This document shows positions 51,430 through 64,000 of a stretch of 64,000 bases of DNA, piece by piece. Each line of letters begins with the position of its first letter. The stretch's first letter is position 1. The translations under genes and the position numbers were made by a program. The notes below the pieces were generated by a model that was not told where the DNA came from, searched no databases, and was given only the letters and a program-made list of their open reading frames with translations. The stretch spans positions 135,155 to 199,154 of the forward strand of contig CALOEN010000021.1 in the NCBI GenBank assembly GCA_942492335.1, written 5' to 3'. Origin of the DNA: an uncultured beta proteobacterium (GTDB lineage Bacteria; Pseudomonadota; Gammaproteobacteria; Burkholderiales; SG8-41).

Positions 51430-53667
51430 TTACTTGGTTTCAAAAGTATAGGCGCCGTCCCAGTCCGAACCCGGCGGGCTCACCCGGAAATGCGCAATAC
51501 GCTCAAGGTACACATTGTAGAGCCCGGCGTCATCGGCTGTTTTCTTTAGGTTGATCAGCTGCAATTCGGCCATATCCCAATCCTGTGCACGGTACAATTT
51601 AAGTGATTGTTTCCAAAGACCTATTTCATCAATAACGGCTTTGTCGACCTGGCCTTCCAAGCCCAGCGGCTGGTAGATGGCCACCGGTTCCACCTTGCCT
51701 TTGACGCGAACCCGGTCGATTTCCCGGCACACGAAGCCTGAAATCAAACTCTTGGTGCCCTCGCCGATAATAATATCAGCCCCATATTGTTTTGTGATGC
51801 CCTCGAGCCGTGAAGCGATATTTACCGCATCACCCATTACAGTATAAGCCTTGCGGATCTGTGATCCCATATCGCCAACCCGCACCACCCCTGAGTTGAC
51901 CCCCACGCCAATCTTGAATGTCGGCCAGCCCTTTTCCTTGAATTTCTGATTCAGGATCTTGGCGGCGGCCTGCATATCGAGTGCTGCAAGCACGGCGTTT
52001 TTAGCGTGCTCGGGATCGGACACCGGCGCACCCCAGAAAGCCATCACCGCATCGCCTATGTATTTATCTAGTGTGCCGCGGTGTCCTTCCCGAATCACCA
52101 GGCTCATGGCCGTAAGATAATCATTGATATAGGCCGACAGGTCCTCCGGCGTCAAGCTTTCGGAAATCGTGGTAAATCCGCGCACATCGGAAAACAGTAT
52201 AGAGAGTTCCTCTGCGCGGGGCGCCATGTTGAATTTTTCCGGATTCTTTGCCATCTCATCGACCAACTCGGGCGGCACGTACTGGCCGAATAAACCCGTG
52301 ATCTGGCGCATGCCGCGGGCTTCAACAAAAAAACCATATGCCATGTTGTGGGTGAACAGCAGCAAAATCATGACCAGCCCCGAGGCCAGCGGCAGCACCA
52401 CGTTCCCGACATGAAACACAACCAGGTTGGTAACCAGCGCCAGGAGCAGCGCCAAGACAGTAGCCAGGGTCGACATCAGCGGGTTGAGCAAGGGCAGCAG
52501 CAGCGCAATCGCCAACCCCGAGAGCAGAAGAATCATGAACTCCGCGCCCACCACATACGGCGGTTTCTGCTTGATATTGCCGTCCAGAATTCCGGTGATC
52601 AGATTGGCGTGGACCTCGACCCCCGGGTAAACCGGGTCGACCGGCGTGGCCCGCAGGTCAAGCAGCCCGGGTGCTGTCGTGCCGACAAGCACGATTTTTC
52701 CCCGGAGTTCGGCGGCATCGATACGGTCGTTCAGAACATCGACGATGGATATATATCTGAAACTGCCCTTGCGCCCGCGATAAGGCACCAGTGACGCTGC
52801 GTATTCATCTACCGGGATCCTGAGTGATCCGATTTTAAGCCACTCGAATCCCGAGTAGCTGCCGGACAGACCCTGGTCCGTGAACACGGGCTGGATCGGC
52901 GGCATGCCTATCAGGGCGCGGACCATCGCCAGTGCCAGGGGTTCGTAATACTTGCCTTGATATTCGGCAAGCATCGGCACCCGGCGCGTGATGCCGTCGT
53001 CGTCGGTCCAGGGATTGAAATGCCCGGCGCTGGCGGCATTTTTCTGCAACTCGGCCAGATTCGCCGTGTAACCGGTCCACGAGGTGACGCCGATTTTCCG
53101 GCCGCCTAACGCGTCGGCGGCAAACACCGGCGGCGGCAACATGCCCTTCTTCGGGGCCAGCGCGGGGTCGTCGCTGGAAAACGTGAAGCCCAGCACAACC
53201 TGCCGCCCCTTCATTTTGCGGGCGAAAATATCATCATATTCGAGATTCGGCTTGATTTTATTCAGCGCCGACTGGAACTGCTGTACGTCCCTGAGTTCTT
53301 TCTGTCCGAGTTGCTCCAGCACGCGTATGCCCGATGATTCATCGCGTTCGGCAAACACCACGTCGAAACCGACGATAGCAACCTGGTATTTGTCGAAAAG
53401 CTTGTCCAGGAGCAGCGCCAGCCGGTCGCGCGACCATGGCCAGCGGCCTTCGCCACCTCTTTCCTTTTCAAGCAGGCTCTTTTCGTCGATATCGAGGATG
53501 ACGATGCGGCTGTCCACCGTGCGAGGCATGGTCAGCCGCAACCGCGTGTCATAGATAATGGACTCGAGGTTGTCTATGAGCGGCAGCCGGTAGAAGCCGA
53601 TGGTATGTCCAAGGAACAGCGCCACCAACGCCAAGCCTATGGCAATTCGGACGAGATTTCTCTTCAA
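51430..53667 (-). CDS. CHASE2 sensor domain + class III adenylate/guanylate cyclase
   Basis: TTG start with GAGGAGA RBS. CHASE2: IVILDIDEKSL...GRWPWSRD. TM block. Cyclase: LSILFSDVRGFTTISE...KYIGDAVMAFWGAP...GDAVNIASRLEG. Confidence 0.88.
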   Translation of the reverse strand: MKRNLVRIAIGLALVALFLGHTIGFYRLPLIDNLESIIYDTRLRLTMPRTVDSRIVILDIDEKSLLEKERGGEGRWPWSRDRLALLLDKLFDKYQVAIVGFDVVFAERDESSGIRVLEQLGQKELRDVQQFQSALNKIKPNLEYDDIFARKMKGRQVVLGFTFSSDDPALAPKKGMLPPPVFAADALGGRKIGVTSWTGYTANLAELQKNAASAGHFNPWTDDDGITRRVPMLAEYQGKYYEPLALAMVRALIGMPPIQPVFTDQGLSGSYSGFEWLKIGSLRIPVDEYAASLVPYRGRKGSFRYISIVDVLNDRIDAAELRGKIVLVGTTAPGLLDLRATPVDPVYPGVEVHANLITGILDGNIKQKPPYVVGAEFMILLLSGLAIALLLPLLNPLMSTLATVLALLLALVTNLVVFHVGNVVLPLASGLVMILLLFTHNMAYGFFVEARGMRQITGLFGQYVPPELVDEMAKNPEKFNMAPRAEELSILFSDVRGFTTISESLTPEDLSAYINDYLTAMSLVIREGHRGTLDKYIGDAVMAFWGAPVSDPEHAKNAVLAALDMQAAAKILNQKFKEKGWPTFKIGVGVNSGVVRVGDMGSQIRKAYTVMGDAVNIASRLEGITKQYGADIIIGEGTKSLISGFVCREIDRVRVKGKVEPVAIYQPLGLEGQVDKAVIDEIGLWKQSLKLYRAQDWDMAELQLINLKKTADDAGLYNVYLERIAHFRVSPPGSDWDGAYTFETK

Positions 53668-53684
53668 ACCGTCTCCTCTGCCTT

Positions 53685-53732
53685 AGGGACTGTTAACAAT
53701 TACCACATGAGTGGTAATTGTTAACAGTCCCT
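53685..53732. repeat. Perfect 22-bp-stem palindrome (4-nt loop) immediately upstream of the cyclase RBS
   Basis: AGGGACTGTTAACAATTACCAC-atga-GTGGTAATTGTTAACAGTCCCT. It ends 5 nt from the GAGGAGA RBS. Related to the element at 13461..13524. Confidence 0.9.
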
Positions 53733-53946
53733 GGGTATGGGGTTTGAGACCCACCCCCGGTTGTTGCTCGCCGGCCTGAGCATTTCCTGCCCTTTCCTGC
53801 TGACCAAAAAGCCGGGTCCTGACGGCATGCGCCGCAAGCCCGGCCCAGTGATTTCTTGCATCGTCCCGCGCCGCCGACTCAATGCCGGAAAGTCATATAA
53901 CTATTAAAATACAATGGATTACAGTTAATCCGGCACCCAGGATCGG

Positions 53947-54729
53947 CTATTTTGTTTTGATGAAAAATTCCATTTTCACGCCGGTAAGCTCTATCACATC
54001 GTGATCTTTGAGCGGGGATGCCTGCGCATCGAGCACCTTGCCGTTGATCACAGGGAAACTCGCGCCTTCAACATGCGTGATGAAATAGCCCTGAGGCCGG
54101 CGCGTGATGACTGCGACCTGCACGCCGGGCTTGCCAAGGGTGGTCAGATTCTTGGTGAGTTCAAGTTCCTTGCCCGCGCTCGGTCCATTCAGTATCTGAA
54201 CGGCAGCCAGCATTGGCGCAGCGGCGGCCGGCGGCGCAGCAGCAGCAGTAGTAGCAGTAGTAGTAGTAGTAGTTGCAGCGGGCTTCGCCGCTTCGGCGGC
54301 CGCTGCAGTTGCAGCGGCTGACGCTGCAAAGGCTTGCGTGTCGCCCGCTGATTTGGGGCCGGCGGGTTTCGCCATGGGTGATCGCAAGACCATGGTCTTC
54401 TCAAACTCATCGGCCGACGTCTGGCCCGCTGCCGGTACGTCGGCGATATATTTGAGCTTGTACTTGCCGACCTCGATCACGTCGTTATTCTGGAGAATAT
54501 GCTTCTTGATCGGGTTGCCGTTGACCAGCGTGCCGTTGGTGCTGCCCAGATCCTCAAGGAACGAATCGTTGAGTATCGTCACAATGCACGCGTGTTCGCT
54601 GCTCACCGCCAGGTTTTCAATCTGGATATCGTTCTGCGGTTTGCGCCCAATCGTTACCCGTTCCTTGTCGAGGGGAACTTCCCTGATTACCGACCCATCC
54701 AGACTTAGAATCAACTTCGCCATGGTCAT
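53947..54729 (-). CDS. Double FHA-domain protein with Ala/Thr-rich linker
   Basis: N-terminal FHA: VTIGRKPQNDIQIENLAVSSEHACIV...GSTNGTLVNGNPI. Linker: AAATAAAAEAAKPAATTTTTTATTAAAAPPAAAAP. The C-terminal second FHA-like domain ends ...DHDVIELTGVKMEFF. Confidence 0.85.
   Translation of the reverse strand: MTMAKLILSLDGSVIREVPLDKERVTIGRKPQNDIQIENLAVSSEHACIVTILNDSFLEDLGSTNGTLVNGNPIKKHILQNNDVIEVGKYKLKYIADVPAAGQTSADEFEKTMVLRSPMAKPAGPKSAGDTQAFAASAAATAAAAEAAKPAATTTTTTATTAAAAPPAAAAPMLAAVQILNGPSAGKELELTKNLTTLGKPGVQVAVITRRPQGYFITHVEGASFPVINGKVLDAQASPLKDHDVIELTGVKMEFFIKTK
54237..54276. repeat. Trinucleotide microsatellite (CAG)n(AGT)n inside the FHA linker
   Basis: cagcagcagcagtagtagcagtagtagtagtagtagttgc. 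On the coding strand it encodes AATTTTTTATTAAA. Confidence 0.85.
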
Positions 54730-54739
54730 ATCCCTTAGC

Positions 54740-55557
54740 TTATCTAAACCAAGCTTTTAATGTTTCCAACCATCCGGCGCGGGGCACCGGGAAATCTTTT
54801 ACTACACGAACCAGAATAACCGAAATATTGTCACGACCGCCATTGTCATTGGCCTGTTGCACCAGTTGCTCTGCCGCCAGCGGCAAATTTGCCTGCAGCG
54901 AGGACAACGTCAGCTGAATATCCTCGTCAGTCACCATGTCGCTCAATCCGTCCGAGCACAATAAATAGAGGTCGCCCGGCTGGACCGGATACGTATGCAC
55001 TTCCGCCTCAACTTCCGGATCGATGCCGACAGCGCGAGTCACCAGGTTCTTATTTTGCGAAAACTTCGCCTGCTCCCTGGTTATCATGCCGCTATCTATC
55101 TGTTCCTGCAACAAGGAATGGTCACGCGTCACCTGTTCAAAGGTGTCGTCCCGGAGCCGGTAAAGCCTGGAGTCCCCGATATGGCCAACTGTCATCTGAT
55201 TGTCATGCCATAACGCTACCACCAGAGTCGTGCCCATGCCGGAGTACTGCGACTGGCTCTGCGCCGCCTGGTAAATTGCAAGATTGGCTTGTACATGGCG
55301 TGCTCGCTGAGCAGAGATTCTGCACCCGCATCCGGGATCTTGCCGTTTTCGCCGCCCAGCATCTTCTTCATTTCAGCCGAAATCATGGCCACGGCAATAC
55401 CGCTCGCCACTTCGCCGGCATTGTAGCCACCCATGCCGTCGGCCAGCACGGCCAGCCCGATCTCGGCATCCGCGGCTATGCTGTCCTCGTTGTGCGAACG
55501 CACCATCCCGGAGTGGGTGGCGGTCGCGACGTCAAGGGCAGCGGTTAAATTTACCAA
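54740..55557 (-). pseudogene. PP2C-family Ser/Thr phosphatase, split by one frameshift near 55294..55297
   Basis: ORF 55216..55557: THSGMVRSHNEDS...LADGMGGYNAGEVAS... ORF 54740..55237: (VQANLAIYQAAQSQSQYS)GMGTTLVVALW...HIGDSRLY...LLCSDGLSDMV...DNGGRDNISVILV. The frames join between ...SLLSEHA and VQANLAIY. Confidence 0.85.
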
Positions 55558-55566
55558 AATCAGCTC

Positions 55567-58179
55567 CTAAAGATTGATATCCACCGAAACAGTGTTCGGT
55601 GCCGCACTGTTATCGATGCACTCGCGCAATGCCTTGGCCATTTCATCCCCGGTCTGATAGCGGCTCTCCGGCTGCTTGGCCAGCGCCCGGTTGATGACCG
55701 CGACCAGCGCCGGGGAAAGCGTGGGGCTGTAAGTAAGAATGTCAGTATGCGGCTCATTGGCGATTTTGAACATGAGTTGGGCCATCGAGTCGCCTTTGAA
55801 CGGCAGATACCCGCAGCACAGCTGGTAGAGCGTGGCTCCCAGCGAGAACAGATCAGACTTGCCTTCTATCTTCATCCCGGCAAGCTGCTCGGGAGACATA
55901 TAGGAGGGCGTGCCCAGCACCATGCCGGTCTTGGTCTTGGATGAATCCGTAATACGCGCAATGCCGAAATCGGTCACTTTGACGGTATCGCTTTCCAGCT
56001 CATACATGATGTTGGCGGGCTTGATATCGCGATGCACGACATTGTTACGGTGCGCATAACCCAGCGCTTCCGCGACGCGGGCGACGATGGATAAAACCGT
56101 CGGCAGCGGTAGCAGCTTGTCGGCTTTGGTATAAGGCGCCAGATCCCCGCCTTTCAAAAACTCCATGGCGATGAAAGCCAGGTCATGCTCTTCACCGGCA
56201 TCGAAAATCGTAACAATATTCGGATGGTTAAGCCGGCCGGCGGTTTCAGCTTCGCGGAAAAAACGTTCCTTGACGTCCTGCAACTCGTCAGCCTCGAATT
56301 CCTGTGACAATGCCATCGTCTTGATCGCCACGACGCGGCCGATCTTCGGATCCTTGCCAAGATAAACGATGCCCATCGCGCCTTTGCCCAACTCCTTCTC
56401 GACCTGATAGCGGCCAAGCATGGGCTTCTCCACGCCCCCTCCGGCCATGATCACCGTGCCTCCGGGATGACTGCCGCCGGAGCCAAGCATTACGGTTTCC
56501 GACATGGCTGTGGCGCGGTTGAGCCGCTGCTCGATGTCACGGAATTTCGGATTAAACTCGGACATGTAACGCAACGCCGATTCCGCCTTGTTGAACTGCC
56601 GCTTGCGCTCGAAGTCCAGCGCCAGGCTATAGAGGTTTTCCATTACCGCATCAGTAATCGGGCATTTGCGGAACATGTCCCAGGCCATATCCAGCTGCCC
56701 CTGCGCCTGATAGGCGATGCCGAGCATGCGGTTGCTCTCCGCTGATTGTGCATCCGAAGTTTCCTTGCCGCGCTCGGTGACAAGAAAGCGTTTGCTGATC
56801 AGCGCTGCATACCCTACCGCCAGCAACAACACCGACGTCATCATTTGTAACCACATCAACTGGGTCACCATCAACGCAAAATGCGCGCCGATCAGGGCAA
56901 TGGCAATGAAGAGGCTGACTATGCCCGCGACCGCTGCCTTCATGCGCGGCAGAATGGCAATCAGGTAAATGGCCACCAGCAGAAATACCAGCTTCTCTAC
57001 CCAGGGACTCCAGGTAGGGACAACGAAGAAATGCTCTCCCAAAATACTCGATACCGTATGCGCCAGGATCAGCACCGGCGCGGTCACGGGCGAAACCGGC
57101 GTCACCTGAGACGAGCCCAGTCCCGCTGCGGTTGCACCTATCAATACGATCTTGTCCCGATATTTCGCGGCCGGGATCTTGCCGCTGAGGACGTCGTAAA
57201 ATGAATCGACGGAAAATGCCGGTTTCGCGTCGCGATCACCGTAGAAAAAAGTATACATACGAAACTCGGGATCGGTCTTGACTCTGAGTTTGCCTATCCG
57301 CACTTCCTCTCCGGCAACGAGCTTGATATCTGCTATCTTGAGGTTGAGACTGCTTGCCGCCACCATCACCGCCAGCGCGGGAAAAGCCTTGTCGTAGTAG
57401 CGCAGAACCAGCGGCTCTGCACGCACCGCGCCATCGATATCGTTCGCTGAATTCAGATGCCCGATTCCGGTTGCGCTGCTTCCCAGAGCGGCAATAGGGT
57501 ACAGCGGATTGATGCCTGGAATGGGCAGATCAGCCGTTCTCGTGTCGAATGCCAGGCTGTTGGCCACCACGTAATCCGGCAACGGTTTGTCGGGATTACC
57601 CTGCGGCTCACTGAGTGACTGGAACACCATGGGCAGCATGACATTGCCGGCACGTTTGAACGCATCAGCCAGCTTGCGGTCGGTATTGAGCGCCTGCTCC
57701 GCTTCCTGCAGCAACGCGCCGAACTGAACGATATCGGGCCCGGCAGTCTGGGCATCTGGCACGGTGAGCGCTACCACCGGTTCAGGGACCGCAGTTTCAG
57801 AATGGGGTTGCGGCGCACTTCTCGTGTAAAGCTCCAGCAGCTTATTGATGTAGACCAGCCCCGGATCAATCTGAGGTTCAAAAAAGAAAGTGCTGTTAAC
57901 AATAACCTTGGCCTGTGCTGCCGCCAGAACATCGGTCATTTTGGCGTGAACATCGCGCGGCCAGGGCCAGCGCCCGATGTTGGAAATGCTCCGGTCATCG
58001 ATTGCAATGACGGCGACCTTGTCTGATGGCGTACGCGAAACAGCATTGACCCCCAAATCGTAGGCCTTGCGCTCAAGGCTTTGAATCAGGTCGCCACGGG
58101 CAGCAACCGCCATAACAAGCACGATCACTACCCCCAGAAACCAGTCAGATTTATAAAAAGCCCGTTTATTCATCCCCAT
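55567..58179 (-). CDS. CHASE2 sensor domain + transmembrane block + TPR-like segment + Hanks-type Ser/Thr kinase
   Basis: CHASE2: VAVIAIDDRSISNIGRWPWPRDVHA. Four or so TM helices. Kinase: GKGAMGIVYLGKD...VAIK, HRDIKPANIMY, DFGIAR, TPSYMSPEQ. Confidence 0.88.
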   Translation of the reverse strand: MGMNKRAFYKSDWFLGVVIVLVMAVAARGDLIQSLERKAYDLGVNAVSRTPSDKVAVIAIDDRSISNIGRWPWPRDVHAKMTDVLAAAQAKVIVNSTFFFEPQIDPGLVYINKLLELYTRSAPQPHSETAVPEPVVALTVPDAQTAGPDIVQFGALLQEAEQALNTDRKLADAFKRAGNVMLPMVFQSLSEPQGNPDKPLPDYVVANSLAFDTRTADLPIPGINPLYPIAALGSSATGIGHLNSANDIDGAVRAEPLVLRYYDKAFPALAVMVAASSLNLKIADIKLVAGEEVRIGKLRVKTDPEFRMYTFFYGDRDAKPAFSVDSFYDVLSGKIPAAKYRDKIVLIGATAAGLGSSQVTPVSPVTAPVLILAHTVSSILGEHFFVVPTWSPWVEKLVFLLVAIYLIAILPRMKAAVAGIVSLFIAIALIGAHFALMVTQLMWLQMMTSVLLLAVGYAALISKRFLVTERGKETSDAQSAESNRMLGIAYQAQGQLDMAWDMFRKCPITDAVMENLYSLALDFERKRQFNKAESALRYMSEFNPKFRDIEQRLNRATAMSETVMLGSGGSHPGGTVIMAGGGVEKPMLGRYQVEKELGKGAMGIVYLGKDPKIGRVVAIKTMALSQEFEADELQDVKERFFREAETAGRLNHPNIVTIFDAGEEHDLAFIAMEFLKGGDLAPYTKADKLLPLPTVLSIVARVAEALGYAHRNNVVHRDIKPANIMYELESDTVKVTDFGIARITDSSKTKTGMVLGTPSYMSPEQLAGMKIEGKSDLFSLGATLYQLCCGYLPFKGDSMAQLMFKIANEPHTDILTYSPTLSPALVAVINRALAKQPESRYQTGDEMAKALRECIDNSAAPNTVSVDINL

Positions 58180-58280: not shown

Positions 58281-58433
58281 TAATTTCACGTAAATACAGG
58301 CTATTACAACATCCCGCCACCCTCGAATCATGATCGATCCGAATCATAAGGCAGTGTTGCGGCACTGCGGCAGAGGCAAAAAATAGTGCACAAAATCAGG
58401 AACGTGGCTTTATGCGGCAGCGAAAAAACCGGT

Positions 58434-58462
58434 AAAAAAAGGCCGCGGTTCTCACCGCAGCC
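58434..58462 (-). terminator. Rho-independent terminator after the formyltransferase gene
   Basis: Minus-sense GGCTGCGG-tgagaa-CCGCGGCC followed by T7. About 30 nt after the stop at 58491. Confidence 0.7.
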
Positions 58463-58490
58463 CCCAGAACCCTGTTCGCAGAGTAAATTC

Positions 58491-59423
58491 TCAGGCGCCG
58501 AGTATGGCCCCGTTCGAAAGCCCCTGGCTACGAGCGAAATCACCGCCTGAAAGTTTCTTGCCGTTCTCGCCGCGCGCACGCAACACTTCGATCAGCCCGC
58601 CTTGCGCGGTGACCTTGAAGCTGTCCGCGGTCACGTCCGACACTTCGCCGATCTTGCCAACGACATCGGCAAACCGCCTGAACCCATGCTTGCGCGCATC
58701 GAATATCTGAATTTTCTTGCCGGCCAGCGTGGTCCAGGCCCCCGGCGCAGGATTGCAGCCACGGATCACGTTATAAACATGGTCCACCGGTTTTGCCCAG
58801 TCCAGCCGGCCTTCTGCGGCACGGCACCAGCCCTCATAGGTCGCCTGGGTTTCATCCTGCACGAGTTCCTTGTGCTTGCCCGCCACCACCAGGTCGGCCG
58901 CTTCCAGCATCGCCTTGACGCCCATGGGAAACAGTTTATTGAAATAGATCTCGCCTATGGTCTCATCCGGGCCGATCTCGCATTCTTTCTGCAAAATCAC
59001 CGGACCTTCGTCGAGGCCGTCGTTAGGACGGAAAATCGTCAGGCCGGTCCGGGTCGAACCCTGAATGATCGGCCAGTTGATCGAGGAAGGTCCGCGGTGC
59101 TTCGGCAGCAGCGAAGGGTGATACTGGATCGTGCCGTGTTTCGGAATGTTCACGAACTCCTGCGGTGCGAACAGCAGCACATAAGCCATAATGCCCAAGT
59201 CGACGTTCAGCGCCTTAAGCGCATCCTGTGCCTCGGGTTTCCGATAAGAAGCAAACTGAAACACCTGCAGCCCCTTTTCCTGGGCTGCCACTTTCAAAGG
59301 GTCGGGTTTTGCGCCCTCCTTGTCCGGCGCCACAAACACACCGGCGACGTCATCACCTCGCGCAAGAAAAGCATCGAGCACTCCCTTGCCAAAATCCTGT
59401 TGACCAATAATCGCTATCTTCAT
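58491..59423 (-). CDS. Formyltransferase-fold protein (Fmt / 10-formyl-THF dehydrogenase N-terminal-domain-like)
   Basis: MKIAIIGQQDFGKGVLDAF...GTIQYHPSLLPKHRGPSSINW (catalytic His) ...NDGLDEGPVILQ (Asp), plus a C-terminal Formyl_trans_C-like beta-domain. 310 aa. Confidence 0.8.
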   Translation of the reverse strand: MKIAIIGQQDFGKGVLDAFLARGDDVAGVFVAPDKEGAKPDPLKVAAQEKGLQVFQFASYRKPEAQDALKALNVDLGIMAYVLLFAPQEFVNIPKHGTIQYHPSLLPKHRGPSSINWPIIQGSTRTGLTIFRPNDGLDEGPVILQKECEIGPDETIGEIYFNKLFPMGVKAMLEAADLVVAGKHKELVQDETQATYEGWCRAAEGRLDWAKPVDHVYNVIRGCNPAPGAWTTLAGKKIQIFDARKHGFRRFADVVGKIGEVSDVTADSFKVTAQGGLIEVLRARGENGKKLSGGDFARSQGLSNGAILGA

Positions 59424-59521
59424 GACGGATCTCCCAACAGGATTTCAGTGGAGACTAATTTTTGCGAAGCAAAAGTTATGTTGGAACTAAAATCTTGCTG
59501 TCCAATAATCACTATTTTCAT
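59420..59521 (-). CDS. 33-codon upstream ORF mimicking the first 11 codons of the formyltransferase gene (leader peptide candidate)
   Basis: AGGAAC RBS. MKIVIIGQQDFSSNITFASQKLVSTEILLGDPS*. Its TGA overlaps the main ATG (ATGA). Not in the ORF track. Confidence 0.45.
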   Translation of the reverse strand: MKIVIIGQQDFSSNITFASQKLVSTEILLGDPS

Positions 59522-59629
59522 TTTCTGTTCCTAAAACATTAGGGCCGCCAGGAAATCACAAGCGCCCATGGTCAGCAGATTGGAACCATTATGGCGTCGT
59601 TGGCGCCTTGGTGGCCGCTTCAGTCCTGA

Positions 59630-60901
59630 TTACTTTGGTTTTTTCGGTGGCGCAGAAAATGCGCCGGCGCCTTTCAACTTACCGATCTGCTCATCGCCGT
59701 ACCCAAGCACGTCCTTGAGGATTTCCTCAGTGTGCTCGCCAAGCGTTGGAGAGCGCTTAATCTTCGCCGGCGAAGCGGACAGCTTGATCGGCATGCCTAC
59801 GTTCCACCATTTTCCGCGCTGTGGATGATCGAGTTCGACATACATTTCGCGGCCGCGAATATGTTCGTCGTTGGCGAGATCCTCGGTGGACATGATCGGT
59901 CCGCACGGCACGTTGAGCGGATTCAGGATCGCCATGAATTCGCGCTTGGTGTACTTCTCGGCAAATTTGTTGATCAGCGTCCACATCAGCTGCTGGTTCT
60001 TGCGCCGCTCGCCGATGGTGGCGAAATGCGGGTCAGCAGCCAGGTCGGGCATGCCAATGTCCGGTCCGATGCGCTTCGCGAGCGCACCCCAGACTGCTTC
60101 CTGCACAACCACGTAGAGCCAGTCGTTCGCGCCGTGCGGCTTGCAGTGGATGGCGTTGCCGAGCTGGCCCCCGCCGGAATCGTTGCCGGCGCGCGGCACG
60201 TCCCCCATGCCCTTATAGGTGGGCACGGAATACTCCGAGAGTTCGCCGCGCGTCAGGCGCTGGTGATCGCGCCATTTGACGCGACACAGGTTCATCACGC
60301 CGTCCATCATCGCCACCTCGACATACTGTCCCTGGCCGGTCTTCTCCGCCTGGCGCAAGGCAGCAAGCAAGCCTATTCCAAGGTGAAGACCGGTTCCCGA
60401 GTCGCCTATCTGTGCACCGGTAACGAACGGCGGGCCGTCGGGCACGCCGGTGGTGCTCATCGCACCGCCCATCGCCTGCGCCACGTTTTCGTAGGCCTTG
60501 AAATCAGCGTAGGGGCCCGTAGAGCCGAAACCCTTGATCGAGCCCATGACAATCTTGGGATTGATCTCGTGTATCTTTTCCCATGTGAAGCCGAAGCGGT
60601 CGAGCACGCCCGGGCCGAAGTTCTCCATGATAATGTCGCATTTCTTCAGCAGGTCGACGAACACTAACTTGCCTTCGGTCGATTTCATATTCACGGTGAT
60701 CGACCGCTTGTTGCAGTTGAGCATGGTGAAATACAGGCTGTCGGCATTGGGCACGTCGCGCAACTGGCCGCGCGTGGCATCGCCCATCGGATTTTCGAAT
60801 TTGATCACGTCCGCGCCCATCCACGCCAGCAGCTGCGAGCAGGTGGGCCCCGCCTGGACGTGGGTCATGTCGAGAATGCGAACCCCTTTGAGTGCTTCCA
60901 T
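59630..60901 (-). CDS. frc: Formyl-CoA:oxalate CoA-transferase
   Basis: MEALKGVRILDMTHVQAGPTCSQLLAWMGADVIKFE...ADSLYFTMLNCNKRSITVNMK. Class III CoA-transferase, Frc-like throughout. Confidence 0.9.
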   Translation of the reverse strand: MEALKGVRILDMTHVQAGPTCSQLLAWMGADVIKFENPMGDATRGQLRDVPNADSLYFTMLNCNKRSITVNMKSTEGKLVFVDLLKKCDIIMENFGPGVLDRFGFTWEKIHEINPKIVMGSIKGFGSTGPYADFKAYENVAQAMGGAMSTTGVPDGPPFVTGAQIGDSGTGLHLGIGLLAALRQAEKTGQGQYVEVAMMDGVMNLCRVKWRDHQRLTRGELSEYSVPTYKGMGDVPRAGNDSGGGQLGNAIHCKPHGANDWLYVVVQEAVWGALAKRIGPDIGMPDLAADPHFATIGERRKNQQLMWTLINKFAEKYTKREFMAILNPLNVPCGPIMSTEDLANDEHIRGREMYVELDHPQRGKWWNVGMPIKLSASPAKIKRSPTLGEHTEEILKDVLGYGDEQIGKLKGAGAFSAPPKKPK

Positions 60902-60964
60902 GTCTTGATCTCCAAAAATTTTGCGGCAGATAAAAGACGACCTGCCCTCGCTTGACCGTTTGAC

Positions 60965-62705
60965 TTATTTCTTTTTTGCGCTTTGCGGATTCAGGCTCGT
61001 GATGCGACCGCTTTCAGTGCCGGCGGTTTCGTCGATGACGGCATTGATGAGCGTGGGCTTGCGCGAGCGGATTGCTTCTTCCATGCTCTTTCGCAACTCG
61101 GCCGGGGTCGTGGCGTGTACGCCCACACCTCCGAAGGCCTCCATCAGCTTGTCATAGCGTGCGCCCTTGACGAACACGGTGGGCGCCACATCGCCGCCAG
61201 CCGGATTGACGTCGGTGCCGCGGTAGACGCCGTTGTTGTTGAAGACCACCACGCAGACCGGCAGATCGTAGCGGCAGATGGTCTCGACTTCCATGCCGGA
61301 GAAGCCGAAGGCGCTGTCGCCCTCAATCGCAATCACCGGCTGGCCGCTTACCACGGCGGCCGCGACGGAAAAGCCCATGCCGATGCCCATGATGCCCCAG
61401 GTGCCGACGTCCAGGCGCTTGCGCGGCCGGTACATGTCGACGATGCTGCGGGTGAAGTCCAGCGCGTTGGCACCTTCGTTGACGAGGTACGCGTCCGGGT
61501 TGGCCTTGATGATGTCGCGCACCACGTTCAGCGCGCTGTGGTAATTCATCGGCGTCGGATCCTTGGCCAGGGTCTCGGCCATCTTGGCGAGGTTCTTGTT
61601 CTTGCGCTCGGCGATCGCGGTAAGCCAGTCGGCCGGCGGCTTGGTCCAGTTGGAACCGATGCCGGCGAGCAGCGCTGACACGCAGGAACCGATGTCGCCG
61701 ACCAGCGGAGCATCGATGCGCACGTTGCTGTCCGCCTCCTGCGGCGAGATGTCGATCTGGATGAACTTCTGGCCGCCCCAGTCCTTGTGGTCCTTGCCGC
61801 CCCAGGTCTTGCCCTTGCCGTGCGAAAGCAGCCAGGTCAGGCGGGCACCGACCAGCACAACCACGTCAGCCCCGGGCAGCACGTAGGAGCGGGCGGCGGC
61901 GGCGGACTGCGCGTGCGTGTCGGGCAGCAGGCCCTTGGCCATGGACATGGGCAGATAGGGAATGCCGGTCTTCTCGACCAGCGCGCGGATGTCCGCGTCG
62001 GCCTGGGCGTAGGCAGCACCTTTGCCCAGCAGGATGAGCGGCCGCTTGGCGCCCTTGAGCAGATTCAGCGCGCGCTGCACGGCATCGGGCGCCGGAATCT
62101 GGCGCGGCGCCGGATCGACCACCTTGATCAGCGATTTCTTACCGGCTTCCGCGTCCATGGTCTGAGCGAACAATTTCGCCGGCAAATCGAGATAGACGCC
62201 GCCCGGGCGGCCAGAGACGGCGGCTCGGATGGCGCGCGCGATGCCCACGCCGATGTCCTCGGCGTGCAGCACGCGAAAGGCGGCCTTGGCACAGCGGCTT
62301 GGCGATGGCCAGCTGGTCCATCTCCTCGTAGTCACCCTGCTGCAGATCGACGATCTCGCGCTCGCTGGAGCCGCTGATGAGGATCATCGGAAAGCAATTG
62401 GTGGTGGCGTTGGCCAGTGCGGTCAGGCCGTTGAGGAAGCCGGGGGCGGACACCGTCAGGCAGATGCCGGGCTTTTGCGTCATGAAACCGGCGATGGCGG
62501 CGGCGTTGCCGGCGTTCTGCTCATGGCGAAACGAAATCACGCGCATGCCTTCGGCCTGCGCCTTGCGAGTGAGGTCGGTGATCGGGATACCGGGCAGACC
62601 GAAGATCGTGTCTATGCCGTTGAGTTTGAGGGCATCGATGACCAGGTGAAAACCATCGGTCAGTTCTAGTGATTGTGCATCGGTTGTCATGCTGAGATCC
62701 GTCAT
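60965..62705 (-). pseudogene. oxc: Oxalyl-CoA decarboxylase (TPP enzyme), split by a 1-nt insertion near 62288..62289
   Basis: ORF 62139..62705: [45 protein letters not shown]...[18 protein letters not shown] 60965..62335 continues [40 protein letters not shown]...[18 protein letters not shown]. The junction TGC-C-AAG-GCC needs one base removed. Confidence 0.88.
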
Positions 62706-62877
62706 GGTTAGATACCTCGCGAACTCGCCGTCAATTGAACAAGTGTTTTGGCTATGAATATCTGCCGTGGAAGGTAAAGAGGGCTGAATTCCCCCAATTC
62801 ACAGCAACTCCAGGCCACCTCAAATGTGGCTTTCATTTACACCTGCGAATCATAGGGGACTGCATGCCCATACACCC

Positions 62878-62891
62878 TTGACCACGGTCAA
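62878..62891. promoter_or_regulatory. Crp/Fnr-type palindromic box TTGAC-CACG-GTCAA in the oxc / regulator divergent intergenic region
   Basis: Perfect 14-bp palindrome. An extended -10 (TGgTATACT, 62905..62913) lies about 14 nt downstream on the plus strand. Confidence 0.5.
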
Positions 62892-62953
62892 TTTTTCCGG
62901 TTTTTGGTATACTAACGGGTCGCGTCGATTCTCGCCGCCCCGCAGCAAATTCT

Positions 62954-63562
62954 ATGTCACTGCTGGCCCAACATCCCGAAGCCCAGATCATCCGCGTCCA
63001 GCTGAGGCAGAACATGATGCTCAAGCAGCTCGAAGCGGCCCACTGGGAGGAGTTGGAGACCCTGCTGGATATCGTGGATTACCCGAAGGGCGAGGCGCTT
63101 GAACACCAAGGCGACGAGTCGATGGAGCAGTATTTCATCATCGACGGCATCCTCAAGCGCGTAGTGTCGAACGCCCAGGGTAAGGAAATGATCCTGCGCT
63201 TCGCTGCCGAGAGTGAAATCGACACGAGCTATGCGGCATGGCGGCTCAAAACCCCGATCCCCTACTCAATCCGGGCCGTAACCAAGGTGCGCGCCGCCAA
63301 GCTGTCGATGCAACAGTGGGTCCAGTTCATGGAACGCTACGACTCGATCAAAAGCGAATTCGAATTCGAGATCATGAAGCTGATGAGCGAAGTCATGGGA
63401 CATACGATCACGCTGCATCTGCTCGATGCGCCTGGCCGTGTGCAGCGCTTCATGCGCAAGCACCCCGCGCTGGCCGAACGCCTGCCGAAGAAAGAACTCG
63501 CTTCCTACCTCAACCTCTCTCCCGAAACGCTAAGCCGGCTGAAACGAAGCGGGAAAATATGA
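62954..63562 (+). CDS. Crp/Fnr family transcriptional regulator
   Basis: N-terminal cNMP-binding-like beta-barrel (YPKGEALEHQGDESMEQYFIIDGILKRV). C-terminal HTH (KKELASYLNLSPETLSRLKRSG). The start may be an internal ATG (MMLKQLE). Confidence 0.8.
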   Translation: MSLLAQHPEAQIIRVQLRQNMMLKQLEAAHWEELETLLDIVDYPKGEALEHQGDESMEQYFIIDGILKRVVSNAQGKEMILRFAAESEIDTSYAAWRLKTPIPYSIRAVTKVRAAKLSMQQWVQFMERYDSIKSEFEFEIMKLMSEVMGHTITLHLLDAPGRVQRFMRKHPALAERLPKKELASYLNLSPETLSRLKRSGKI

Positions 63563-63584: not shown

Positions 63585-64000
63585 TCAGACTGCGTTAGCG
63601 CGCTGGCGCAGTCTGCGGATTAGCCACGAAATCAGCGGCCAAAAGAGCAGTAGCAGCGCTAAGCTGGTGAGTGTGCCTACCAGCATGTTGGAGAAGAAGA
63701 TTGTCATGTCGCGATGCGACACCAGCATCGCCTGGCGGAACGAAGCTTCGGCCCGGTCCCCCAGCACCAGTGCCAGCACCAGTGGCGCAAGCGGATAGGC
63801 GAGTTTTTTGAACGTGTAACCGGCGATGCCAAACACCACCATCATGTAAATGTCGAAGGTGGCGTTATGCACCGTATAGGCCCCGATCGCGCAGATCACG
63901 ATGATGATCGGCGCGATCACCGAGAACGGAATCCTCAGGATCGCGGCGAACAGCGGCACGCAGGTCAGCACCACGATCAGTCCGGCAATGTTGCCGAGGT
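63585..64000 (-). CDS. tctA: Tripartite tricarboxylate transporter permease TctA, 5' end beyond the window
   Basis: The reading frame is open to position 64000 (...LGNIAGLIVVLTCVPLFAAILRIPFSVIAPIIIVICAIGAY...LGDRAEASFRQAMLVS). Typical TctA C-terminus. Confidence 0.75.
   Translation of the reverse strand, partial: LGNIAGLIVVLTCVPLFAAILRIPFSVIAPIIIVICAIGAYTVHNATFDIYMMVVFGIAGYTFKKLAYPLAPLVLALVLGDRAEASFRQAMLVSHRDMTIFFSNMLVGTLTSLALLLLFWPLISWLIRRLRQRANAV

Follow-up and report, generated by a model that had tools for sequence, protein, structure and literature searches.

A stand-alone relative of the formyltetrahydrofolate dehydrogenase N-domain, adjacent to formyl-CoA transferase in oxalate operons, is a candidate 10-formyltetrahydrofolate:CoA formyltransferase

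The minus strand of a 64,000-nucleotide stretch of DNA from an uncultured beta proteobacterium (contig CALOEN010000021.1; hereafter the window, numbered from its first letter) carries an oxalate operon whose last gene encodes a stand-alone formyltransferase of 310 aa (58491–59423), which we call FT. It is preceded by oxc, encoding oxalyl-coenzyme A (CoA) decarboxylase (60965–62705, minus strand), and by frc, encoding formyl-CoA:oxalate CoA-transferase, which belongs to class III of the CoA-transferases and has 423 aa (59630–60901, minus strand). A preliminary description of the window, made from the letters alone, had reported these three co-oriented genes, and they are indeed arranged in this way; it left unmentioned that oxc is split into two open reading frames (ORFs), at 62139–62705 and 60965–62335, which jointly cover the decarboxylase models (with NF006721 of NCBIfam, the C-terminal part scores 744 bits and the N-terminal one 260). 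The frc product passes the formyl-CoA transferase equivalog TIGR03253 (561.8 bits for a cut-off of 504.2) as well as NF003809 (574 bits, cut-off 442), and matches Pfam PF02515 at 7.7e-99. On the 3′ side of FT, a hairpin resembling an intrinsic terminator (58432–58465, minus strand) combines a 12-bp GC-rich stem with a U-run and folds at −29.7 kcal/mol (z = −3.76), which none of 200 shuffled sequences equals. Since this terminator is strong and the gene beyond it carries its own promoter-like site, FT is the last gene of the oxc–frc unit.

FT matches PF00551 (Formyl_trans_N, 2.3e-32) and PF02911 (Formyl_trans_C, 4.9e-17), a two-domain architecture which is that of methionyl-tRNA formyltransferase (Fmt) and which is non-discriminating, being common to the N-terminal domains of 10-formyltetrahydrofolate dehydrogenase (FDH, or ALDH1L1) and of ArnA. 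When FT was compared with the Protein Data Bank (PDB) by phmmer, six entries of the FDH/ALDH1L1 N-domain (hereafter FDH-N) came on top, with 4qpd first (1.5e-63, 218 bits), ahead of the best Fmt (4iqf, 1.3e-41, 146 bits), of ArnA (about 1e-28) and of HypX (5e-8). The preliminary description had judged FT to be nearer to FDH-N than to Fmt, and these scores bear it out; the motifs that it quoted are present as well, YHPSLLPKHRGPSSINW at residues 101–117 and NDGLDEGPV at residues 134–142. With 166.2 bits, FT falls below the cut-off of the fmt equivalog TIGR00460 (201.5), as do six other FDH-N-like formyltransferases (131–175 bits), when four controls of the Fmt clade reach 317–356 bits. It likewise stays under the cut-offs of the NCBIfam models for PurN (44.3 vs 150.1), ArnA (121.9 vs 777) and dTDP-sugar formyltransferase (29.6 vs 238), the NCBIfam scan lists no match to the PurU model, and the Pfam scan finds no ACT domain. 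No NCBIfam model claims the FT group, as scored on the FT of the window and on these six members.

We then inferred a neighbor-joining tree from 52 full-length sequences, with E. coli Fmt and ArnA and verified full-length FDHs as references, after removal of fragmentary and chimeric representatives of 50%-identity clusters. Fmt and ArnA are split with 83% bootstrap from an FDH-N-like superclade that comprises eukaryotic FDH-N, the clade of the window FT (86% bootstrap) and other bacterial 310-aa proteins, so that FT does not cluster with bona fide Fmt. The tree has no resolution inside the superclade, and does not settle whether eukaryotic FDH-N descends from the window clade. The same division is found in loop 1, which in Fmt (E. 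coli residues ~34–49) recognises the initiator tRNA: it counts 22 residues in 10 of 10 sequences of the Fmt clade, but 17 in 12 of 12 sequences of the window clade and 16–17 in FDH-N. It is also found in the catalytic motif, which reads IQYHPSLLP in FT, I(V/I)YHPSLLP in FDH and INVH(G/A)SLLP in Fmt, Gln100 of FT replacing the catalytic Asn that stands two residues before the catalytic His in the N-V/L-H of Fmt and ArnA. The motifs SSINW and ATYEG are common to FT and FDH-N, and the residues marked as key in zebrafish FDH-N structures (PMC4388273), namely His106, Ser108, Asp142, Tyr200, Phe89, and Arg114, correspond to His102, Ser104, Asp138, Tyr196, Phe85, and Arg110 of FT. The AlphaFold model of FT (pLDDT 95.6) has 4qpd as its top Foldseek match (E 1e-38). 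The FT ORF ends at its stop codon without fusion to a carrier or aldehyde dehydrogenase domain, when FDHs (e.g. P0250) carry both PP-binding and Aldedh domains. Judged by its sequence, FT is a relative of the FDH N-domain, and neither FDH itself nor a Met-tRNA formyltransferase; it belongs to the folate enzymes of the FDH-N type, and its predicted active site is intact.

FT has a large family, with over 8000 clusters at 90% identity that pass E 1e-20; where these are named, the label is methionyl-tRNA formyltransferase; 780 clusters at 50% identity are retrieved at E ≤ 1e-30. Two FDH-N-type peptide motifs occur in at least 600 stretches of species-representative genomes, and 594 of those listed encode an FT relative. 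By these sequence criteria, the FT family is widespread and publicly misannotated as Met-tRNA formyltransferase.

From the perspective of gene neighborhoods, FT is tightly linked to frc. We considered two sets of loci, namely the best 80 of at least 594 species-representative loci, whose FT is 63–95% identical to that of the window (77 being informative for frc), and 80 metagenome loci selected solely by the similarity of their Frc to the window Frc (88–93% identical; 78 informative). In GC-rich loci, ORFs were picked by a GC3–GC2 coding score, as a greedy choice by length gave antisense shadow ORFs. Of the 77 loci of the species set, 62 have a co-oriented frc immediately upstream of FT, at a median gap of 36 nt, and 5 more have frc elsewhere within 10 kb. 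In the set selected by Frc, FT directly follows Frc in 77 of 78 loci, with a median gap of 26 nt and an FT identity of 62–88%. The hosts of the species set include Burkholderiales, Acidobacteria (Terriglobia, Bryobacteraceae), Methylobacterium, Rhodospirillales, Mesorhizobium, Pseudaminobacter, Comamonadaceae, and Steroidobacteraceae. The juxtaposition of frc and FT is thus far beyond chance, and the pairing is conserved across phyla; the preliminary description had seen it in one locus and had proposed co-occurrence as a check. With regard to the mobility of the pair, FT is 72% and Frc 81–83% identical between acidobacterial metagenome-assembled genomes (L018, L020) and the betaproteobacterial window, and transfer of frc–FT between phyla as a unit is suggested by these identities.

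The partners of the pair vary from one lineage to another. In Acidobacteria (L017–L024, L031, L043), the frc–FT pair is retained and the gene upstream of frc encodes a thiamine pyrophosphate (TPP) enzyme that is only ~27% identical to Oxc; its best NCBIfam models (e.g. for L021, 6964–8676) are PRK05858 'acetolactate synthase' (470 bits) and 2-hydroxyacyl-CoA lyase (HACL; 341 bits), both below cut-off. This member of the HACL/Oxc-like group is perhaps another kind of lyase that yields formyl-CoA. FT comes after a classical Frc (705 bits) in Methylobacterium, where oxc is not nearby. In five Comamonadaceae loci (L057, L059, L068, L076, L079), a membrane protein of the TauE/SafE family, and not frc, precedes FT; several kb downstream, these loci have tripartite tricarboxylate transporter (Tct) genes along with oxc and a pair of frc-like paralogues (46% and 55–57% identical).

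Linkage extends to more divergent members of the family, whose contigs are mostly 2–7 kb long, which makes immediate neighbors readable. Among six relatives at 39–55% identity, a class III CoA-transferase adjoins FT in four, those that keep it being 41–55% identical. One of these loci has the order frc-like gene, FT, and formate–tetrahydrofolate (THF) ligase (fhs), with overlapping stop and start codons (L083); another has a frc-like gene upstream of FT (L084); a third has both a class III CoA-transferase and a TPP enzyme beside it (L087). The fourth lies on plasmid pLA6_002 of the marine isolate Paracoccaceae strain La 6 (L085; CP031587.1, 65036–83947), with the annotated order oxc–frc_5–fmt_2–fhs_2, in an island that also contains ppc, sucCD-annotated genes, TctBA, ketopantoate reductase, and glyA2. 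The island has the appearance of one for oxalate use combined with the serine cycle, and in a cultured isolate it would make a good experimental system; its sucCD-annotated genes possibly encode malate thiokinase. Pelomicrobium sp. G1, Methylobacterium planeticum, and Pseudaminobacter salicylatoxidans are further isolates with an FT gene. The two remaining relatives stand beside a gene of the major facilitator superfamily (L088) and in an unrelated context (L086). Among the 80 species loci, a formate–THF ligase is found near FT in 17 and an oxalate/formate antiporter in 13, and subunits of NAD-dependent formate dehydrogenase, PanE2-like 2-dehydropantoate reductases, glyoxylate aminotransferase, and hydroxyacid dehydrogenase genes also recur. 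In Methylobacterium extorquens, PanE2 is a CoA-acylating glyoxylate dehydrogenase, i.e. an oxalyl-CoA reductase (PMC7486775). A tblastn search of the 64-kb window detects neither formate–THF ligase nor a PanE2-like gene, and neither another frc nor a genuine fmt; in relatives, fhs lies 8–10 kb upstream of FT, which is past the window end.

What FT may do in such operons is suggested by the chemistry of its closest characterised homologue. In the isolated N-domain of FDH, a thiol, β-mercaptoethanol in vitro, has been proposed to attack the formyl group of 10-formyl-THF, and in the full-length enzyme a 4′-phosphopantetheine arm has been suggested to act like β-mercaptoethanol (PMC4388273); the thiol chemistry to which the preliminary description appealed thus has a published basis. 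We lean toward reading FT as a reversible 10-formyl-THF:CoA formyltransferase, a candidate function in which the CoA partner is deduced from gene context and FDH-N chemistry. The reaction would be 10-formyl-THF + CoA ↔ formyl-CoA + THF, with the thiol of free CoA as partner. His102 and Asp138, with Ser104, would polarise the formyl carbonyl of bound 10-formyl-THF, and the CoA thiol would attack the formyl group in the manner proposed for β-mercaptoethanol and for the arm of FDH, of which CoA contains the same phosphopantetheine moiety. In doing so, FT would connect the formyl-CoA pool of Oxc and Frc with the one-carbon (C1) pool of folates.

Two physiological directions can be considered. In the direction of supply, formate would be converted into 10-formyl-THF, then into formyl-CoA, then into oxalyl-CoA with regeneration of formate, through the successive action of formate–THF ligase (FtfL), FT, and Frc; these three steps would sum to oxalate + CoA + ATP → oxalyl-CoA + ADP + Pi, formate and THF being catalytic. 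Such a route would prime the Frc/Oxc cycle and replace the thioester lost by hydrolysis or by reduction of oxalyl-CoA to glyoxylate. The cycle needs priming, formyl-CoA is labile (in quenched reaction mixtures, its half-life is 1.9 h), and E. coli primes the cycle via YfdE (PMC3720670). As reduction of oxalyl-CoA to glyoxylate does not regenerate formyl-CoA, it would create a need for formyl-CoA supply, and oxalate activation by FtfL, FT, and Frc would account for the dedicated fhs copy found directly after FT. In the opposite direction, formyl groups derived from Oxc would go directly into 10-formyl-THF for assimilation. The preliminary description had justified this transfer by the conservation of activation energy, a weak rationale, as the thioester of formyl-CoA serves Frc again, for the activation of the following oxalate; each formyl-CoA drained to THF must then be repaid with another thioester. 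As to the net direction, we incline mildly toward formyl-CoA supply, for which the preliminary description had also left room and which fits the neighbors (formate–THF ligase and PanE2-like reductases) at least as well as transfer from formyl-CoA to THF. In energy, a thioester lies a little above the N10-formyl amide. For the reverse formate–THF ligase reaction, a review gives a cost of only +5 kJ/mol (PMC8085960). Transfer by FT should therefore be reversible, with a direction that depends on the irreversible Oxc step or on reactions that consume folate.

Among described enzymes, FDH-N is the one that FT resembles most (PDB 4qpd, 1s3i, 2bw0, 7rlu; 37% identity, 1.5e-63, TM-score 0.87), with a shared IxYHPSLLP, SxINW and ATYEG, a shorter loop 1, the same active-site residues, and a proposed chemistry that moves the formyl group from N10 of the folate to a phosphopantetheine thiol. 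Unlike FDH, FT is a stand-alone protein of 310 aa followed by a terminator, in which the carrier and aldehyde dehydrogenase domains are absent, and its proposed product, formyl-CoA, would go to Frc/Oxc metabolism, whereas FDH oxidises the formyl group to CO2. The cryo-EM paper on ALDH1L1 gives no contacts between the N-domain and the 4′-phosphopantetheine arm that might be transposed to FT. Among described enzymes, a transfer of the formyl group from N10-formyl-THF to CoA, with formyl-CoA as the product, has been proposed solely for the N-domain of HypX (PDB 6j0p), in the synthesis of CO for [NiFe]-hydrogenase (PMC6802093). HypX shares with FT its fold family and the His/Asp catalytic pair, but the two are distant (E 5e-8, 18–20% identity, TM-score 0.69); HypX has a fused decarbonylase domain resembling enoyl-CoA hydratase (ECH), binds CoA as a prosthetic group and acts in hydrogenase maturation, with formyl-CoA staying on the enzyme, whereas FT has no C-terminal ECH-like domain and the gene maps of its loci show no hyp genes. 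If the preliminary description was not aware of any such enzyme, this stands for the stand-alone form, which is absent from the full text found, but HypX is a precedent for its chemistry. Fmt has in common with FT the Formyl_trans_N and Formyl_trans_C domains, ~30% identity, and a folate site with catalytic His and Asp, and differs from it by the equivalog score, the five additional residues of loop 1, the catalytic Asn in place of Gln, and the gene context. PurU, of the same superfamily, also acts on 10-formyl-THF; it differs from FT in bearing an ACT domain at its N-terminus and in having an NCBIfam model to itself. With regard to priming, YfdE would be a functional analogue, as it gives the cycle a thioester when formyl-CoA is lacking (PMC3720670), from an unrelated family (class III CoA-transferase) and from acetyl-CoA rather than from the folate C1 pool.

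Several observations weigh against transfer to free CoA as the function of FT. CoA binding is not inferable by homology from HypX, given the weak similarity just mentioned. FDH-N itself uses a protein-tethered arm and not free CoA, and the isolated FDH-N is a thiol-dependent hydrolase in vitro, which makes hydrolysis possible for FT (PMC4388273). The fold does not discriminate either, that of FT being as near to Fmt (4iqf, TM-score 0.93) as to FDH-N (0.87), and the net charge of the C-terminal domain fails to separate the Fmt and FDH-N types. With respect to gene context, frc is not within reach in 10 of the 77 informative species loci, an FT relative at 45% identity stands in an unrelated gene context (P0128), and the linked loci are not independent observations, as they share ancestry or horizontal transfer. 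In two loci (L058, 2276–3730; L063, 8388–9887), the gene immediately upstream of FT encodes an ALDH1-class dehydrogenase that is 44–45% identical to the C-terminal domain of FDH, and in another (L069, 4236–7563) FT is followed by an amidohydrolase resembling histone deacetylases (HDAC) and by an aldehyde dehydrogenase 41% identical to that domain; in two more (L060, L074), a HDAC-like gene occurs a few genes downstream of FT and the aldehyde dehydrogenase is absent. Finally, in the window itself the frameshift in oxc may signal a decaying operon, or else sequence errors.

These points give some room to other functions, which we consider less probable. FT could be a 10-formyl-THF hydrolase in the manner of PurU, which would free formate and THF and balance the folate pool during growth on oxalate, when much C1 flux passes through formate–THF ligase: its closest characterised homologue, the isolated FDH N-domain, does hydrolyse 10-formyl-THF in vitro, FT keeps all the catalytic residues, and as formate is both a substrate and a product of Frc a link to frc would not be absurd. 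We nevertheless consider hydrolysis unlikely, as the in vitro activity of FDH-N needs a thiol to be supplied in place of the physiological acceptor, as FT lacks the ACT domain and the PurU model match, and as formate is already plentiful during oxalate degradation. Moreover, a hydrolase placed in one operon with formate–THF ligase, with which it overlaps in L083, would amount to an ATP-wasting futile cycle, and its near-obligate adjacency to frc would be left unexplained. That FT formylates another acceptor, be it an amine metabolite or the thiol of a carrier protein, as in a split bacterial 10-formyl-THF dehydrogenase, has in its favor that the superfamily contains many N-formyltransferases for sugars and other amines, along with the loci in which an ALDH1-class dehydrogenase (L058, L063) or a HDAC-like gene (L069, L060, L074) accompanies FT. 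With free CoA as carrier, the pairing of FT with an aldehyde dehydrogenase could be a split FDH, or it could reflect an unrelated operon. However, these contexts make up only ~5 of the 80 loci, the main partners (Frc, Oxc/HACL-like enzymes, and Fhs) all handle formyl-CoA, formate or 10-formyl-THF, FT scores far under the cut-offs of the ArnA and sugar formyltransferase models, and no carrier-protein gene was noticed beside FT in gene maps and Pfam scans of neighbors, which were not a dedicated search; another acceptor is thus, in our view, distinctly unlikely.

It is also very improbable that FT is a second Met-tRNA(fMet) formyltransferase, as its public annotation would have it. If the fmt model is its best NCBIfam match, if it has the two-domain architecture and fold of Fmt (TM-score 0.93), and if its relatives are publicly named methionyl-tRNA formyltransferase, its 166 bits are below 201.5 and far from the 317–356 bits of the Fmt-clade controls, its loop 1 has 17 residues instead of 22, its IQYHP motif is without the catalytic Asn, and it stands apart from Fmt in the neighbor-joining tree. 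The def–fmt synteny is absent as well, fmt following def in E. coli when FT follows frc, and the Prokka label fmt_2 on the plasmid copy of La 6 implies another fmt in that genome. The outcomes that the preliminary description had named as adverse, a clustering with Met-tRNA formyltransferases or with hydrolases and a lack of linkage to frc elsewhere, are not what we find: FT is separate from Fmt, matches no PurU model, and adjoins frc in many genomes. We hence retain transfer between 10-formyl-THF and CoA as the reading toward which we lean. A stronger version of it, in which FT is a new metabolic enzyme, a freely reversible formyl-CoA:THF formyltransferase, forms with FtfL and Frc an ADP-forming oxalate activation, and corresponds, as a free-living bacterial protein, to the N-domain of ALDH1L1, where the tethered phosphopantetheine arm would mimic CoA, is doubtful as a whole.

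The region between frc and FT (59424–59629, minus strand) suggests in addition that the expression of FT may be specifically controlled. This spacer measures 206 nt in the window, against a median of 26–36 nt in relatives, and shows insertions when compared with the closest relative (L001). It contains an upstream ORF of 33 codons (59420–59521, minus strand), whose first 11 codons (MKIVIIGQQDF) copy the start of FT and whose stop codon overlaps the FT start codon (ATGA). The underlying ~100-nt leader unit, made of a decoy copy of FT codons 1–11, an inner hairpin, and an anti-sequence, is found in 14 of ~160 loci, namely the window and 13 others (L006, L009, L056, L080, L091, L092, L093, L105, L107, L117, L120, L122, L123), one of which holds at least four tandem copies of it (L107, 4821–5244). 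In the window, the anti-sequence is TCTCCACTGAAATCCTGTTG (59435–59454, minus strand) and is complementary to FT codons 8–12; its conserved form across these loci is CTGAAATCTTGCTG. Their pairing can give a helix of 14 bp around the Shine–Dalgarno sequence and AUG of FT; in the window, CAACAGG in FT is matched by CCTGTTG in the anti-sequence. Across the loci, 95.4% of the cells of this helix are paired, with a covariation of 0.166 vs 0.108 in shuffled data, a score that none of 500 shuffles reaches and that exceeds all slid controls. Pairing of the anti-sequence with the upstream decoy copy shows no covariation. Rfam gives no match at E up to 1 in 58300–63100, so that the leader belongs to none of the known riboswitches, for instance those for THF or ZTP. 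We provisionally propose, from 14 related sequences, that the leader unit is a translational control element for FT, possibly a new one.

The integrity of the locus and its surroundings can be described as follows. An extra C at 62288/62289, detected by comparison with L001, splits the oxc of the window into ORFs of 188 and 456 aa (window TGTGCCAAGG vs TGTG-CAAGG in L001). Once stitched, the gene encodes 579 aa that are 96% identical to the intact oxc product of L001, and the 1-nt insertion is either a sequencing or assembly indel or the mark of a recent pseudogene. Downstream of FT, a PP2C phosphatase gene (54740–55557, minus strand) is likewise present as two overlapping ORFs (55216–55557 and 54740–55237), when relatives have a single gene of ~273 aa, which makes a second apparent frameshift within 8 kb; together, the two suggest assembly indel errors or gene decay. 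Divergent from oxc, a Crp/FNR-type regulator with a cyclic nucleotide-binding domain (62954–63562, plus strand; PF00027) has a conserved place upstream of oxc, which it occupies in 37 of the 80 related loci (cluster c2). At the window edge, an ORF (63585–63974, minus strand) corresponds to the 3′ part of a TctA-type gene of a tripartite tricarboxylate transporter; relatives have the order TctC–TctB–TctA ahead of the regulator and oxc (clusters c3, c4, and c10, in 33 loci), annotated Tct genes also occur in the Paracoccaceae plasmid cluster, and the transporter probably serves oxalate uptake. On the other side, a signalling cluster (51430–58179 in the window; clusters c5, c7, c9, c6, c8) adjoins the oxalate operon in 32–37 of 80 loci and comprises a CHASE2 Ser/Thr kinase, the PP2C phosphatase, an FHA protein, two CHASE2 adenylate/guanylate cyclases, and a GAF–MshEN–T2SSE ATPase. 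With the Crp-type regulator, this cluster may point to control of oxalate use by cyclic nucleotides, or may be inherited synteny.

With regard to what has been published, the full-text literature, from which subscription journals are mostly missing, describes no stand-alone formyl-CoA:THF formyltransferase and no formyltransferase in frc/oxc clusters, and the oxalotrophy papers examined mention neither a formyltransferase nor a formyl link between CoA and folate. A synthetic C1 pathway of 2025 converts formyl-CoA into free formate, which is then re-activated by the ATP-dependent FtfL, with no direct link between CoA and folate. The superfamily and its thiol–formyl chemistry being known, it is the stand-alone form, the free CoA partner, and the metabolic role that would be new. 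If FT does catalyse the proposed transfer, it would supply a connection that has been missing between CoA thioesters and folates, which are the two main carriers of activated C1 units. For pathway engineers, the same enzyme would offer an ATP-free entry of formyl-CoA, the C1 product of HACL/Oxc-type enzymes, into the folate pool, as well as a folate-based route to formyl-CoA. For the family, a misannotation that is widespread would be put right, and it would become clearer how the ALDH1L1 N-domain arose. For oxalotrophs, it would explain how they start and top up the Frc/Oxc cycle and how they pay for the oxalyl-CoA that is withdrawn for assimilation.

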